Below the pieces are notes generated by a model. It saw nothing but the letters and a program-made list of their open reading frames with translations, searched no databases and was not told the origin of the DNA. From Trueperaceae bacterium (lineage in GTDB: Bacteria > Deinococcota > Deinococci > Deinococcales > Trueperaceae), in NCBI GenBank assembly GCA_965213705.1, contig OZ243913.1, positions 2,048,001 through 2,112,000 on the forward strand: a DNA stretch of 64,000 bases, written 5' to 3'. Positions 11,769-17,401 of this stretch are shown here, in pieces. A program made the position numbers and the translations under genes. Position 1 is the first letter of the stretch; each line of letters opens with the position of its first letter.

Positions 11769-12707
11769 ATGCGTCCCTCCACGTCGCCGCCGACCGGCCT
11801 TTACGGCCGACCTTACTGGCTCTTAACGTTGGCCGTGCTGTTTTGGGCCGGTAACTTCGTGCTCGGTCGGGCGGTGCGCGCGGAGATTCCGCCGGTCGGC
11901 CTGGCGTTTTGGCGCTGGTGCGTCGCGACGCTTATCCTGTGGCCGTTCGCCTGGCCGCACCTGCGCCGCGACTGGGCTACTGTCCGGCGGCACGGCGGCG
12001 TCATCTTGTTGCTCGCCGCGCTGGGTGTGGGCTCGTTCAACACGCTCGTCTACTCGGGCTTGCAGTACACGGTCGCGCTGAACGCGTTTTTGCTGCAGTC
12101 GCTCATGCCCCTGGGGGTGGTGCTGTTTTCAGCGCTGTTTTTTCGGGACGTGGTCGGTCCGCGGCAACTCGGCGGCATCTTTTTGTCGCTTTTGGGCGCG
12201 GCGCTCATTATTTTCCGCGGGGACCTGGCGACGCTTCTAGCGTTCACGCTCAACCCCGGCGACGCGCTCATTGTCGTCGCGGTGGTGGTCTACGCGGCCT
12301 ACACCGCCTTTTTGCGCAAGCGGCCCGCGCTGCACCCGCTGAGTTTTTTGCTGGCGACCTTCTGTTTGGGCACCCTGATGATTCTGCCCTTTTACCTTGC
12401 CGAGACGGCGGCGGGCCGCTTTGTCACGGCGAACCTGCCGACGGTCTCAAGCATTCTTTACGTGGCGGTGTTTCCCTCCATCGTGTCCTTTTTGTTTTAC
12501 AACCGCGGCGTCGAACTGCTGGGCGCAAACCGGGCGGGGCTGTTCGCGCACCTCATGCCGCTGTTCGGCGGGATTTTGGCGGTGCTCGTGCTGGGTGAAA
12601 CGTTCAAGTGGTTTCACGCGCTCGGCGCGGTCTTAATCCTGTCGGGAATAGCGCTGGCGACGGTGCTGCAACGGCCGCGCTCGCCTTCTTTTCGGGGCTT
12701 GAAGTGA
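11769..12707 (+). CDS. DMT/EamA family transporter
   Basis: LFWAGNFVLGR, about 10 TM segments, GVELLGANRAG; TATACT -10 before ATG 11769. Confidence 0.9.
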   Translation: MRPSTSPPTGLYGRPYWLLTLAVLFWAGNFVLGRAVRAEIPPVGLAFWRWCVATLILWPFAWPHLRRDWATVRRHGGVILLLAALGVGSFNTLVYSGLQYTVALNAFLLQSLMPLGVVLFSALFFRDVVGPRQLGGIFLSLLGAALIIFRGDLATLLAFTLNPGDALIVVAVVVYAAYTAFLRKRPALHPLSFLLATFCLGTLMILPFYLAETAAGRFVTANLPTVSSILYVAVFPSIVSFLFYNRGVELLGANRAGLFAHLMPLFGGILAVLVLGETFKWFHALGAVLILSGIALATVLQRPRSPSFRGLK

Positions 12708-13741
12708 GGGCCGCCGTGTTTGGCGCGTTCGGTGAACGCTTAGAAGTCCGCAACGTGCCCGACCCCGCAGTGCCGCGGGACGGCGTTGTCATCGAGGTGC
12801 GCGCCAACGGCGTCTGCCGCAGCGACTGGCACGCCTGGCAGGGCCACGACCCCACCATCCGGCTGCCGCACGTGCCGGGCCACGAACTCGCGGGCGTCGT
12901 CGCGGCAACCGGCGCGGACGTGACCAACTGGCGGGTGGGTGATCCTGTGACCACGCCGTTTTGCGGCGGTTGCGGCACCTGCGCGCAGTGCTCGAGCGGA
13001 CACCAGCACATCTGCGACCGGGACTATCAACCCGGCTTTTCGGGCTGGGGCTCGTTCGCGCAATTCGTGATGATTCCCAAAGCCGACATCAACCTGGTGC
13101 GCCTGCCGGACACTCTGGGTTTTGTCGAGGCGGCGAGTCTGGGCTGCCGTTTTGTCACCGCGTTTCGCGGCGTGGTCGACCAGGGGCGCGTTCGGGGCGG
13201 CGAGTGGCTGGCGGTTCACGGCTGTGGCGGCGTGGGGTTGTCGGCGGTGATGATCGGGGCGGCGCTGGGCGCGCAGGTCGCCGCGGTCGACATAGACGCA
13301 AGTAAGCTCGAGCTGGCTAGAACTCTAGGTGCGGTCGCCACCGTCGACGCCTCTAAAGAAAACCCCTGGCGCGCGGTCCAAGAGCTGACCCAAGGCGGCG
13401 CGCACGTCTCCGTCGACGCGCTCGGTTCTCAGAAAACGTGCCGTAACTCCGTAAAGTCCTTACGCAAACGCGGCCGGCACATCCAAATCGGGCTGCTGTT
13501 GGCCGCCGAGGCGAATCCCAAACTGCCCATGCACGAGGTTATCGCCAAGGAGTTGACCCTGCTGGGTTCGCACGGGATGCCGGCGCACCGCTACCCGGAG
13601 ATGTTGGACATGATCGTTTCGGGCAAGCTCGAGCCCGCCCGTTTGGTAGGCAAAACGGTTTCCTTGGACGAGGCGGGGGCGGAACTAGAGGCGATGGGGC
13701 ATTTTGCACAGCAAGGCGTGACAGTGATAGATAAATTTTGA
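12704..13741 (+). CDS. Zinc-dependent alcohol dehydrogenase (MDR family)
   Basis: GVCRSDWH, GHE, structural Zn CGGCGTCAQC..C, GCGGVG; GTG start overlaps the DMT stop. Confidence 0.92.
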   Translation: MRAAVFGAFGERLEVRNVPDPAVPRDGVVIEVRANGVCRSDWHAWQGHDPTIRLPHVPGHELAGVVAATGADVTNWRVGDPVTTPFCGGCGTCAQCSSGHQHICDRDYQPGFSGWGSFAQFVMIPKADINLVRLPDTLGFVEAASLGCRFVTAFRGVVDQGRVRGGEWLAVHGCGGVGLSAVMIGAALGAQVAAVDIDASKLELARTLGAVATVDASKENPWRAVQELTQGGAHVSVDALGSQKTCRNSVKSLRKRGRHIQIGLLLAAEANPKLPMHEVIAKELTLLGSHGMPAHRYPEMLDMIVSGKLEPARLVGKTVSLDEAGAELEAMGHFAQQGVTVIDKF

Positions 13742-13743
13742 GT

Positions 13744-14427
13744 TCAAACCTCACTTGGGCTGTCGCTGGTCAAGGGCGCGAGCGTGACGCGCGCCAAATA
13801 GTTCTGCGGCCCGCGCTTTTGGCCGTACTTTTGGATGAGGGCGTAGAGTTCTTTCTGAAAAGCCTTGGCGTCTTGGAAGGTCAGCGAAAACGTGTACCAA
13901 TCCATGAGCAGGGCCGGCGAGTCGGGCTCGAGGGCGATTTCGTTCAGGGTGCGGCCGTCCTCGGGGGTCGGGGTAACGTCGGTGTAAAGGACGTCGCCTT
14001 CTTGGTAAACGGCCATGCCCCAGCGGTGCAGGTCGGGAAAGGTATCGCTGCCGACTTGCACTAAGCTGTGCGCCAAAAGGCGCTGCCAGGGTTCCTCTTG
14101 CTGGTGCAACAGGGTTTCCAAACTGCTGTCGGGCACGGCTGCGAACGGGACGAAAAAACCGTCTTGGGCGGTCGCGTAGTGTTTGACCGCTCGGCCGCCA
14201 CGTTTCACGGTGCGCGTGACGTGGAGCAGCCCCAACCCGGTAAAACGCTTCGTCCAGTACGACAGCGCGTGTGTGCTCACGCCGAGCAGCATGGCCGCCT
14301 CGCCCAAGCTGCGCTCTCGGCCCATAAACGGCCCGAGGTGCCGCGCCGCCCTGGGGTCGGCGAGCAGTCGGGCCGTACCGGGTTGGTCGACCCGCTCGAG
14401 CGTTCTACGTAAAAGATGTTCACCCAT
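13744..14427 (-). CDS. Winged-HTH (ArsR-like) transcriptional regulator
   Basis: ARHLGPFMGRERSLGEAA..LGVS...LSYW.KRF..LGLL.V....RGGRAVKHY; divergent from the 14524 operon. Confidence 0.7.
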   Translation of the reverse strand: MGEHLLRRTLERVDQPGTARLLADPRAARHLGPFMGRERSLGEAAMLLGVSTHALSYWTKRFTGLGLLHVTRTVKRGGRAVKHYATAQDGFFVPFAAVPDSSLETLLHQQEEPWQRLLAHSLVQVGSDTFPDLHRWGMAVYQEGDVLYTDVTPTPEDGRTLNEIALEPDSPALLMDWYTFSLTFQDAKAFQKELYALIQKYGQKRGPQNYLARVTLAPLTSDSPSEV

Positions 14428-14523
14428 TTTGCCTAGCCTACCTCTATTCTTGAGGTTGAGCGTGAGGTGCGTTCCTTTAGGTAAGAACGGCTCACAAAGG
14501 TTAAACCTCGTAAGGAGGAAATA

Positions 14524-15597
14524 ATGAGTGCAAAAACCGGAACCGTACCGCGGGAGAAAAATGCCGAGCCGGCGGCCGACCTGTGGCGCAGCGGACTGTT
14601 GCCCGTGTTGGCGCTGGGCGCGCTGGCGGGCTTGCTTGGGATTTACTGGGACATCGCCTGGCACATCGACAAGGGGCGCGACAGCTTTTTTACGCCGCCG
14701 CACAACTTCATCTACCTGTCTATTCTTATCGTTTTGCTGATGAGCGTGTACGGGTTGGTTCGTGACCGCCGGCAAAGCCCGCTGCACCTGCGGTTGGGGC
14801 GGTTCCTCGTACATCCGGGCGTGTTGATCGTGGCGGTCGGGGCGGGGTTGGAACTGTTTTTCGCACCCGCCGACGAACTCTGGCACCGCGTCTTCGGCTT
14901 GGACGTGACGCTCTGGGCACCGATGCACCTCATCGGCGTGACCGGCCTGACGCTCTACGCTTTTGGCGGTCTGGTAACGAGCTGGGTCGAGCGGCGCTTG
15001 GCCCTAACCGAGAAACGCAAGCGCCTGTTCGGCTACGTGACCGTGTTCTTCGCGGTGGCGCTCCTCGGTTGGACGATGTTGCTGCTCGCCGAGTTTGAGT
15101 TCGGCACGCCCGCCTTTCCGATGTTTTGGCAACCGCTGCTGCTGATGGGGTTGCCGGTCTTCGTCTTAGTGCTGCTGGCGCGGTTGAAACCCGTTCCTTG
15201 GGCGGCGACCTGGACGGCCGTCGCTTTTACGGGTTTGCGCCTGTTATTGGCGGGCCTGCTGCTCACGACCTCGCGCTTCGACCTGGCCGGGGACAGTCGG
15301 CCGGCGATTCCGCTGCTCGTCTTGTCCGGCGTGGCGGCGGACCTGCTGGTGCGGCGCGGCGCGCCGACGTGGTTGACCGGCTTGGTCGTCGCGGCGGTCA
15401 CGCTGGCGTCCAACCTGCCGCTCACGGCGCTGAGCGAACTGAGCTGGTACGCGGGCGCGCTTGTGCGGGGCGTGCCGGCGGGCTTCGTCCTGGCAATCGT
15501 CATGGCCTACCTCGGGCGGGCGACGGCGGACGCGCTCGAGCCCGCGCCGAACCCAGAGCCCCGCCGCGCCCCGACCGCCGAGCGGGTGCCGGCGTGA
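14524..15597 (+). CDS. Polytopic membrane protein with PmoC/AmoC-like copper motifs fused to a PmoA-like region
   Basis: AAGGAGG RBS; WDIAWHIDKGRDSFFTPPH (D43,H47,H60) and ADELWHRVFGLDVTLWAPMH (D117,H121,H135); C-half P-x6-P-x13-PWAAT. Confidence 0.65.
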   Translation: MSAKTGTVPREKNAEPAADLWRSGLLPVLALGALAGLLGIYWDIAWHIDKGRDSFFTPPHNFIYLSILIVLLMSVYGLVRDRRQSPLHLRLGRFLVHPGVLIVAVGAGLELFFAPADELWHRVFGLDVTLWAPMHLIGVTGLTLYAFGGLVTSWVERRLALTEKRKRLFGYVTVFFAVALLGWTMLLLAEFEFGTPAFPMFWQPLLLMGLPVFVLVLLARLKPVPWAATWTAVAFTGLRLLLAGLLLTTSRFDLAGDSRPAIPLLVLSGVAADLLVRRGAPTWLTGLVVAAVTLASNLPLTALSELSWYAGALVRGVPAGFVLAIVMAYLGRATADALEPAPNPEPRRAPTAERVPA

Positions 15598-16151
15598 AGC
15601 GCTTCGGTGCGCTGTTCCTGGCGCTCGTGGTCTCAGCACCGCTGTTCGGGTTCGCCCTGGGCCAAGCCCGACCCGGCAGTACGGCGGACGTTACCGTCGT
15701 TGAGCGCGGGCCAGGCCGGCCGACCCTTATCGAGGTGCGCACCAATCCCGAACTGACCAAAAACGGCGAGATGATGCTCTACATCCGCGGGCGCGACGTG
15801 GGGCACGACCGCGGCTACATCAAGCGGCTCGAGCCGCCCGTCGAGCCGGGGCTGTACCGCTTCGAGGTGACGTTGCCGCACGCGGGCACTTGGGGCGTCA
15901 ACCCGCGCTACGGCGTCGGCCTCGACCTGTACTACGCTTCGTTCAGCGGACATTTCGACCCGGCGGGGAAGGACACGTTCACCTTCCGAACGCGGTTTCG
16001 CGGCGAGTTGGGCGCGGGTACGCCCGCTTACCTCCAACCCCTGGGCTTCGGCATTTTGGGCGTGGTGCTCCTCGTCGCGTTCGGGCTGGTGGTGGCGGTT
16101 TTGCGCTCTTTGGGGCGGCAGGGGGAGTCCGCAACGACTCACCTCGTATAA
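15594..16151 (+). CDS. Exported beta-sandwich protein with C-terminal TM anchor (YtkA/PmoB-like)
   Basis: GTG start overlaps the upstream stop; signal peptide; PGLYRFEVTLPHAGTWGV; hydrophobic C-terminal helix. Confidence 0.55.
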   Translation: MKRFGALFLALVVSAPLFGFALGQARPGSTADVTVVERGPGRPTLIEVRTNPELTKNGEMMLYIRGRDVGHDRGYIKRLEPPVEPGLYRFEVTLPHAGTWGVNPRYGVGLDLYYASFSGHFDPAGKDTFTFRTRFRGELGAGTPAYLQPLGFGILGVVLLVAFGLVVAVLRSLGRQGESATTHLV

Positions 16152-17401
16152 ACGCGCGTGTCCGGCTTGAAAGCGGCCCAGGCGAACCACAGGGTGTTGT
16201 CGTGGACGACTTTGCTAAGTTGCGCGCCGGCCAGCGGTCCGGCCGTGGCTGCGCCGAGGATGTTCCAAGTGCTGCCGGTTTCCTCGTCGACAAAGGCGTC
16301 CCCGTCCGCTCGGAACGTTAAGTTTCGGCCGTCTAACGTGCGCTCGAACACGCCGACCGCGCCCACGTCGCGGCTCGCGGCGATGCTGGCGGCGTCGAGC
16401 GCGCTCGTCGTCCCGGCCTGCCAAAAGAGGGTCACGGGCGTGTTGCCTATCCTGTCGTTGACGACCCCGGCTTCGCTGAGGGTTTCCACTGGGTAAGCCA
16501 CCGCCTCGGCGGGCGCGTCGATGCTGACGACTCGAGCTTTCGGGGGTAAGCGGCCGTCGGGCGTCCCGGCGAACAAAAAGGCCGGGCTGTCCGCGTCGTC
16601 GTAGCCGACGTAAGGGTTTTGCCCGTAGGCCCGCGTAAAACCGGTATCGCGCGACAACACGTGAGCCTCCGGCGCGGCGGCGCGCGCCTCGGCAAAGCTG
16701 ACAATCTGGGCCGGGTAGCGCAGGAGTTGCGTTCCGCTCAGCGTCCCGACGCTGCCGACGCCCAACAGTTGCGACCAGAGCGTACTCGTTGCAGTATCGA
16801 ACATGAGCAAGTTGGAGTTGTAGAGCGTGCCTGACACGCCGAAGGTGACGGGGAGCAGGGCGGTCACGTTGGCGGCCTCGCCTTGAACCCGGTAGGCCTC
16901 AAGAAACGCCTCATCCGGTTCCGTCGGTGCAGCTTCGGGGTTCATTTCGCTCACTTCGCCTTGCTGTTCGGTCGTCAGCGGTAACCGCCTATCGAAAGCG
17001 AGCGCGCTGTTGCAGAGCGGGCAAAAGGTGACGGCCACCGGCACGCTGCCTACCGTGTCGTTGACGATTTCGTGCCAGGTGAGGATTTGCAGCGGGTAGA
17101 CGCGGGTTTCGCCGTTCAAACTGAACACGATGACGGGCTCCTGGGGCTCTATCCAGTCGGCCGCCTCGCCTTGCGACACGAAAATGGGGGCTTGGGTCGG
17201 CGCGGCGGCGTTTTGCCAGTCGCCCGTAAACCCGAGCGCGGGGATGCCGTTGGGCGGCGGGCCGCCGCTCATGACTTCGGCCAGGGGAATCTCAGCCTGC
17301 GACGTGTCCACGCCGATGGCGCGCAGTTGCGACGGCGTTTGCTGAGCTACGGCGGCACCTAAAAAACTCAGTCCTAGCAGCGTCCGAAAAAGTCTTTTCA
17401 T
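16139..17401 (-). CDS. Exported DUF3179 domain protein
   Basis: Signal peptide; SGGPPPNGIPA, YP..IL.WHEIVND, TFCPLCNS, FGVSG.LYNSNL.MFD, WFAWAAFKPDT. Confidence 0.85.
   Translation of the reverse strand: MKRLFRTLLGLSFLGAAVAQQTPSQLRAIGVDTSQAEIPLAEVMSGGPPPNGIPALGFTGDWQNAAAPTQAPIFVSQGEAADWIEPQEPVIVFSLNGETRVYPLQILTWHEIVNDTVGSVPVAVTFCPLCNSALAFDRRLPLTTEQQGEVSEMNPEAAPTEPDEAFLEAYRVQGEAANVTALLPVTFGVSGTLYNSNLLMFDTATSTLWSQLLGVGSVGTLSGTQLLRYPAQIVSFAEARAAAPEAHVLSRDTGFTRAYGQNPYVGYDDADSPAFLFAGTPDGRLPPKARVVSIDAPAEAVAYPVETLSEAGVVNDRIGNTPVTLFWQAGTTSALDAASIAASRDVGAVGVFERTLDGRNLTFRADGDAFVDEETGSTWNILGAATAGPLAGAQLSKVVHDNTLWFAWAAFKPDTRVYTR

Follow-up and report, generated by a model that had tools for sequence, protein, structure and literature searches.

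The gene at positions 14524-15597 of the window (the whole stretch of 64,000 nucleotides under analysis) encodes a single-chain membrane protein that has the scaffold of the copper membrane monooxygenases (CuMMOs), is homologous to them, keeps two sets of invariant ligands, and is coupled to a partner gene, and whose relatives are distributed among aerobes. Together, the two genes would constitute a minimal relative of those enzymes. The host belongs to the Deinococcota, its nearest named relative being a Trueperaceae genome with 87% protein identity; and its genome, in which the fusion-protein gene is present in a single copy, is 98% complete. The features of the module are the following:

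14512..14518, plus strand: ribosome-binding site AAGGAGG, read from the sequence
14524..15597, plus strand: fusion-protein gene, encoding a 10-helix membrane protein of 357 amino acids with a PmoC core and a PmoA-like domain in a single chain
14596..15000, plus strand: residues 25-159, a four-helix bundle assigned as the homologue of AmoC/PmoC TM3-TM6, a duplicated two-helix hairpin
14650..14703, plus strand: site 1 (CuC-type), D43, H47, and H60 with R52 and D53
14872..14928, plus strand: site 2 (at the CuD position), D117, H121, and H135 with D127 and the conserved P115
15010..15537, plus strand: residues 163-338, a six-helix domain of predicted PmoA/AmoA (and ECF S-component) fold
15091..15099, plus strand: acidic pair E190-x-E192 on the outer end of helix 5, in alignment with both aspartates of PmoA GDWDF
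15594..16151, plus strand: partner gene, with signal peptide, Ig/YtkA-like beta-sandwich, and C-terminal membrane helix; GTGA overlap

The N-terminal half and its two ligand sites

The AlphaFold model of the 357-residue protein (pLDDT 90.5, pTM 0.89) consists of four helices followed by six. As a single sequence the protein received no assignment from Pfam or NCBIfam, the former giving only sub-threshold matches to TauE and 5TMH_Lnb; searches of the PDB sequences with that single sequence, with a profile of its close homologues, or with one homologue found no match, and Foldseek returned nothing at E ≤ 0.001 for the model of either the fusion protein or the partner. Among the homologues, Pfam matches to TauE (7/116) and YibE_F (14/116) were taken as hydrophobic noise.

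When a profile of 69 family members was compared with 177,635 PDB sequences, the top 14 matches were C subunits of AmoC/PmoC (E 8.6e-5 to 0.068), ahead of any other sequence. By hhalign, the profile of residues 20-160 aligned with XmoC over 103 columns (94%, E 1.4e-7), with both sites in one register, and the swapped and reversed controls stayed at P ≥ 0.075. The family profile matched real XmoC at E 4.4e-8, and in the opposite direction the XmoC profile found the fusion-protein gene as its sole match in the host genome (E 0.0046), the reference CuMMO subunits having been taken from annotated plasmids and metagenomes. No member reached the Pfam AmoC cut-off (best E 3.7e-4, in 5/116; 6/69 in a second set). 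The fold, for its part, is as modelled not specific on its own for this half, PmoC being aligned at Z 8.0 (rmsd 5.5), below designed bundles (Z 11.3) and cytochrome b561 (Z 10.6). That ranking, along with the empty Foldseek result and a gap of only ~1.3 Z between PmoA and the best ECF S-component in the C-terminal half, is what would speak for convergence, namely for a generic bundle of four helices bearing His and Asp, joined to a domain that resembles S-components; but the reciprocal profile matches, the precedence of the 14 AmoC/PmoC chains, and the circumstance that the two halves match subunits of one enzyme in operon order make such an origin highly improbable, with respect to the N-terminal half the proposal being largely refuted. 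To judge from the profiles, residues 25-159 are almost certainly a true, remote homologue of PmoC/AmoC.

A sequence-only reading of this DNA had described D43-x3-H47-x12-H60 with R52, and D117-x3-H121-x13-H135, at a distance of 57 residues; both are indeed present, in WDIAWHIDKGRDSFFTPPH and ADELWHRVFGLDVTLWAPMH, respectively, and H60 lies 57 residues from D117. The full pattern of site 1 is D43-x3-H47-x4-R52-D53-x6-H60. In the survey of homologues which that reading had proposed, 193 matches were reduced to 178 of full length and these to 163 non-redundant members, among which D43 was conserved in 162/163, H47 and H60 in 163/163, R52 in 160/163, and D/E53 in 161/163; while at site 2 D117, H121, and H135 were each conserved in 162/163, D127 in 161/163, and P115 in 147/163. 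In 69 diverse members (17-62% identity) the six ligands were the sole invariant columns of the alignment (69/69). With each ligand retained by at least 162 of the 163 divergent homologues, and the strict two-site pattern matched by 1 of 9024 ORFs in all six frames of the genome (by 2 when relaxed), chance does not account for the pattern.

The residues of AmoC that are invariant in the XmoC alignment are D136/H140/R145/D146/H153 and N207/H211/H225, with the sites 54 residues apart; and D136/H140/D146/H153 and N207/H211/H225 are given as the CuC and CuD ligands in PMC12804982. Site 1 has its equivalents there residue by residue (D43=D136, H47=H140, R52=R145, D53=D146, H60=H153). The register of site 2 on CuD was set by profile-profile alignment and by the PDB profile matches, and the position of the CuD Asn is occupied by Asp in 162/163 family members versus Asn in 7/7 XmoC. 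The Glu located two residues before the first Asp of AmoC (E134) is absent from the family, together with the segment carrying it.

The profiles of the two family repeats aligned with each other at E 2.6e-15, and the match persisted at P ≤ 1e-3 in 5/5 subsamples of six sequences, whereas the same hairpin-versus-hairpin comparison detected no internal repeat in XmoC (P 0.09). Repeat 2 of the family matched XmoC site 1 at P 6e-4, versus P 0.78 for XmoC site 2 alone, so that site 2 is CuD by position only. According to these profile comparisons, the two sites go back to a single Asp-His-His hairpin of CuC type that was duplicated within the chain, in a symmetric two-CuC design, which symmetric state may be the ancestral one. 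The earlier proposal that the ligand spacings match, with CuD having changed from Asn to Asp, consequently holds for position and spacing but not for chemistry, site 2 resembling a CuC copy. The fusion protein very probably binds metal, which would presumably be copper.

Tandem pairs of family genes were observed at L194:5371-7874 and L195:5841-8266, and also at L031 and L037; in the tandem genes of L194 and L195, site 1 is shortened by a residue (D-x3-H-x11-H) and has no Arg, and no partner gene is adjacent.

The C-terminal domain and the partner protein

When the top 1000 chains from Foldseek were structurally aligned, the best eight for residues 163-338 were PmoA/AmoA (Z 10.5-11.5); and the superposition on PmoA, a check that the sequence-only reading had suggested, gave Z 10.8 with an rmsd of 2.9 over 165 aligned residues for 9cl6_B, and Z 11.5 with an rmsd of 3.9 over 173 for 7ev9_B. 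A wide fold search returned ECF S-components at Z 7.5-10.2 and one PmoA chain at Z 7.4, the best S-component, 5edl_A, aligning with this half at Z 10.2 (rmsd 4.3, 168 residues). Since the model of one and the same domain is matched by both PmoA/AmoA and ECF S-components, these two groups share a fold. Group II S-components need not be gene-linked to an ECF module; genes for an ECF ATPase or T-component did not recur among the flanking genes scanned. The main text of the preprint on the S-component fold does not mention monooxygenases.

By sequence, the profile of this half matched XmoA at P 7e-4 over 117 columns; with the S-components, of whose many families four were compared, the match was P 5e-3 for BioY and 0.28-0.83 for the other three. 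The Pfam model Archaeal_AmoA matched 1/88 homologues at E 5.1e-5. The motif P204-x6-P211-x13-P225-WAAT, with P263 and D273, is present as had been claimed, and stands in register with PmoA P68, P75, P89-xGAT, P124, and D135; but for P211, P225, and the SNLP Asn, conservation stays below 60% across the broad family. As to the acidic pair, E190 is kept in 154/163 members and E/D192 in 141/163. Residues 163-338 are in our estimation probably homologous to PmoA/AmoA, mainly on account of the modelled fold and with a weak in-register sequence likeness, an estimate that we derive in part from both halves matching the same enzyme in operon order. The description of the protein as a single-chain C+A homologue is accordingly borne out, for the C subunit by sequence and for the A subunit chiefly by fold. 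At the position of E190, the members from Rokubacteria/Methylomirabilia (L029, L031-L033, L037, L039) have His, and the domain fused to their C terminus is a different one.

The sequence-only reading had overlooked the conserved, coupled partner. The partner gene is clustered with the fusion-protein gene at 14/39 loci; and among the best 150 of 2064 cluster representatives, a partner-type domain is fused to the C terminus in 102 and to the N terminus in 7, a count in which a few of the extensions are frameshift-like junk. Its model (pLDDT 89.7) has an Ig/FnIII-like fold (best Z 9.3-9.4) that is YtkA/FixH-like, and its fold neighbours include the copper- or iron-handling proteins 9g6b_C, FetP/P19, and CrdA (Z 8.5-9.2), whose scores are on a par with those of generic FnIII and C2 domains. 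PmoB/AmoB was not among the top 50 entries of three fold searches with the partner, and hhalign found no match to XmoB (P 0.13). The coupled partner appears to be an Ig/YtkA-like sandwich rather than PmoB. No conserved His, Met, or Cys was found in it across the clade of the window, and 52/102 of the C-terminally fused partner domains have an A-x-A-H pattern like the mature start of PmoB. The partners at L034:7152-7985 and L036:7089-8636 begin with HVGSP after the signal peptide, that of L036 running on into His/Met-rich segments, as opposed to the His-less partner of the window. The partner is absent at L018, L026, and L019-L023, which latter loci form a Chloroflexota subfamily (mostly Dehalococcoidia) with a conserved run of a cupin-like gene (so labelled from reading the sequence), DUF255, GBBH-like_N, and DUF815.

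Distribution, gene neighbourhood, and candidate functions

The fusion protein has 153 close homologues, and the family comprises 2064 cluster representatives (50% identity) at E ≤ 0.001, of which the best 150 were examined. The named loci are from Deinococcota, Chloroflexota, Actinomycetota, Methylomirabilota/Rokubacteria, Acidobacteriota, Gemmatimonadota, and one Thermoplasmata archaeon; in the Atlas, archaeal clusters appeared as further leads. The family was present in 37/301 Deinococcota and 52/301 Chloroflexota genomes, its spread being patchy, in heterotroph-rich groups, with up to 4 copies per genome. Because the family is large and has no Pfam or NCBIfam model, its function, whatever it may be, is common and unassigned.

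Within the 301 Chloroflexota genomes the family occurred in 51/240 with a COX1 match at E ≤ 1e-100 and in 1/61 without, the lone carrier in the latter group having a full-length COX1 match at 5e-81; a heme-copper oxidase subunit was therefore present in 52/52 Chloroflexota carriers, and five further carriers also had COX1. The Fisher p was 5e-5, or 8e-5 without five unpublished genomes (49/235 versus 1/61), in a comparison for which the tables were crossed by eye and in which kinship and genome size inflate the Fisher p. The Deinococcota, Chloroflexota, and COX1 tallies include the unpublished genomes G655, G1166, G1271, G1262, G1034, and G1169, on which nothing else in the analysis depends. 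This link fits a role in copper supply equally well as one in O2 chemistry.

The neighbours were obtained by heuristic gene calls and a Pfam scan of 1-3 genes on each side at ~84 distinct loci. CopZ/CsoR/CopA genes flank 2 of these, TetR regulators 8, and alpha/beta hydrolases 6, beyond which nothing recurred across groups; in particular, no electron-donor or product-processing gene recurred beside the family gene. In individual cases, copZ-csoR lies directly upstream on the same strand (L007), csoR-copA-glutaredoxin upstream (L149/L200), ctaA/ctaB nearby (L017), and YtkA genes nearby (L012, L154, L191, L204), and several loci are bordered by genes of lipid and acyl-CoA metabolism. L024, L025, L168, and L018 adjoin genes for membrane proteins of the molybdopterin-oxidoreductase or ferric-reductase-like kind, which are possible electron partners, four loci being too few to count.

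In the window, the scanned flanking genes include no CsoR gene. The divergent HTH regulator at 13744-14427 (minus strand), with at least 4 paralogues in the genome, was rejected as a part of the system because no homologue adjoins family genes at other loci, as was the Zn-dehydrogenase at 12608-13741, which recurs at only 2 loci. A perfect short inverted repeat, AGGTT-A-AACCT (14498-14508), lies just 5' of the ribosome-binding site; visual inspection of the upstream regions of nine homologues did not reveal it there. A DUF3179 secreted protein is encoded convergently at 16139-17401 (minus strand) with a 13-base overlap with the partner gene, which arrangement is kept at the same-genus locus L002.

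The sequence-only reading had left function and substrate open, and rightly so. We tentatively favour, while granting it somewhat less than an even chance, an O2-using two-metal membrane oxygenase or oxidase that would act on some hydrophobic substrate, neither methane nor ammonia. The AMO channel that holds both coppers is made of AmoC TM3-TM6 and AmoA TM1, according to PMC12804982, and these are exactly helices 1-5 of the fusion protein. Two metals, most likely copper, would lie side by side at the outer membrane face, each on Asp-His-His, above a hydrophobic channel built by those five helices; the short basic loop joining the halves, under the positive-inside rule, would place both sites and E190 on that face. 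More speculatively, the metal pair might be reduced from the quinol pool and then activate O2, the oxidised substrate might be a hydrophobic, membrane-borne lipid or organic compound, and the partner might cap the outer face, as PmoB does, or, in the subfamilies with an N-terminal His, load metal.

CuB is dispensable in Verrucomicrobia and in the mycobacterial HMO, the CuC residues being essential, as reported in PMC13058606; a partner without CuB does therefore not exclude catalysis. We favour the oxygenase or oxidase because the protein retains the helices of the channel together with its two sites, because of that dispensability, and because copper genes are rare neighbours; the COX1 association and the TetR and hydrolase neighbours were also counted in its favour. 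Counted against it were the Asp instead of Asn at the site most often tied to activity (CuD), the missing E134 segment, the lack of a recurrent electron-donor gene, and the copper- and iron-handling fold neighbours of the partner.

The same neighbours enter into a second, less probable though still appreciable explanation, in which the sites would take copper from the periplasmic partner in order to store it, to pass it across the membrane, or to load cuproenzymes, with no O2 chemistry. We grant it that weight because of the YtkA/FixH-like partner fold, the S-component likeness of the C-terminal half (with the BioY match), and the two copper operons, to which may be added the ctaA/ctaB and YtkA genes near other loci, the A-x-A-H pattern of the fused domains, and the heme-copper oxidases of all Chloroflexota carriers; but the copper genes flank only those 2 of ~84 loci, the partner in the window is without conserved His, Met, or Cys, and neither a recurrent ECF ATPase or T-component nor, in the window, a CsoR gene was found among the flanking genes. 

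Sets of two His and one carboxylate with extra carboxylates suit Fe or Zn. The carboxylate richness of the sites, which are symmetric sets of this kind accompanied by the conserved D53, D127, E190, and E/D192, keeps in consideration a non-copper two-metal enzyme on the same scaffold, such as a di-iron oxidase or hydroxylase or a zinc hydrolase, e.g., on lipids, whose genes and those of acyl-CoA metabolism flank several loci; and Cu, Zn, and Fe have each been assigned over the years to these pMMO/AMO sites, as noted in PMC13058606. Against it, copper is the metal of the only characterised homologues, and Cu and O2 are indicated by the two copper operons and by the confinement of the family to genomes that encode heme-copper oxidases, so that we deem such an enzyme unlikely.

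Relation to the copper membrane monooxygenases and other known systems

The host genome has no XmoA, XmoB, or true XmoC, in a search that included a positive control. In a quick, unrooted tree of 46/163 family rows and no archaeal AmoC, the 14 bacterial XmoC stood on their own long branch (support 100), outside which the family appears to fall. Further CuMMO references were found neither in 401 genomes nor in viral contigs, nor above the cut-off in 301 Thermoplasmatota genomes, whose sole weak match, L163, is not a family member; the CuMMO reference comparisons accordingly ran without archaeal AmoA/AmoC sequences. Because the CuD Asn is replaced by Asp, C and A are fused, no cupredoxin B is demonstrable, and the scores lie below the family cut-offs, the family is not a CuMMO member, though built like the CuMMO catalytic core. 

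That it is nevertheless a true CuMMO, oxidising methane, ammonia, or short alkanes, could be argued from the C-A-(B-like) gene order, from the presence of both ligand sets, from a B-like topology that recalls the truncated archaeal AmoB, and from an N-truncated C like archaeal AmoC, which likewise is without the first two helices (PMC10030591). But the scores far below the Pfam AmoC cut-off, the lack of genomic XmoA and XmoB, the partner's P of 0.13 against PmoB, the separate branch of the bacterial XmoC, and the patchy spread in heterotroph-rich groups with up to 4 copies leave this reading with very little probability; and the family should not serve as a marker for methane or ammonia oxidation.

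A literature search, with subscription papers and supplements outside its scope, found no description of the family, nor a passage on it in PMC11725843; what the window contributes is the internal repeat, the clade with a His-less partner, the direct comparison with S-components, the tally of copper genes beside the loci, and the heme-copper oxidase link. Published CuMMO trees take archaeal AMO, chosen by distance, for their outgroup (PMC6215863); they could be rooted by a family that lies outside all bacterial XmoC. We advance, as a speculation on balance unlikely, that in this family the sister group of all CuMMOs survives, a symmetric two-CuC, O2-activating dicopper enzyme of one or two polypeptides, and that pMMO/AMO arose from its ancestor by the change of Asp to Asn and the recruitment of a cupredoxin. 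If this were true, thousands of ordinary aerobes would offer an outside root and a small, expressible model of CuC/CuD. Whether the chemistry of pMMO/AMO takes place at CuC, at CuD, or at both is debated, the enzymes being hard to purify in active form, as discussed in PMC13058606; a natural protein that retains only the five helices of the channel with the two sites, and has Asp where CuD has Asn, lends itself to comparison and could make the question testable.

With the ECF S-components (5edl_A, 6zg3_H, 4tkr_B, 4dve_A) the C-terminal half has in common the six-helix fold (Z 7.5-10.2), at a higher rmsd (3.3-4.4) than with PmoA. The partner has the layout of archaeal AmoB (PmoB/archaeal AmoB, PF04744), i.e., a signal peptide, one beta domain, and one C-terminal helix, is third in the operon, and in some subfamilies begins with His after the A-x-A site; it differs in its Ig/FnIII-like, YtkA/FixH-like fold, in having no HxH, and, in the clade of the window, in having no conserved His. 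PmoA/AmoA (PF02461, PF12942; 9cl6_B, 7ev9_B, 7s4h_B) has the same six-helix fold over 165-173 residues, with an acidic pair at the end of TM1 and the P..P..xAT, P, and D in register, whereas the family domain has ~10% structural identity, is shorter, and is without the soluble YVRTGTPEY region. With PmoC/AmoC (PF04896; 9leg_C, 9cl6_C, 9pxf_G, 6cxh_C, 7yzy_C), finally, the family differs in being without the first two helices and the GGSFF-EQ segment, in having 57 instead of 54 residues between the sites, Asp for the CuD Asn, and a fused A-like domain, and in its clear internal repeat, undetectable in XmoC; but it has the same TM3-TM6 core, the exact site 1 spacing D-x3-H-x4-RD-x6-H, and the identical 3/13 spacing of site 2.
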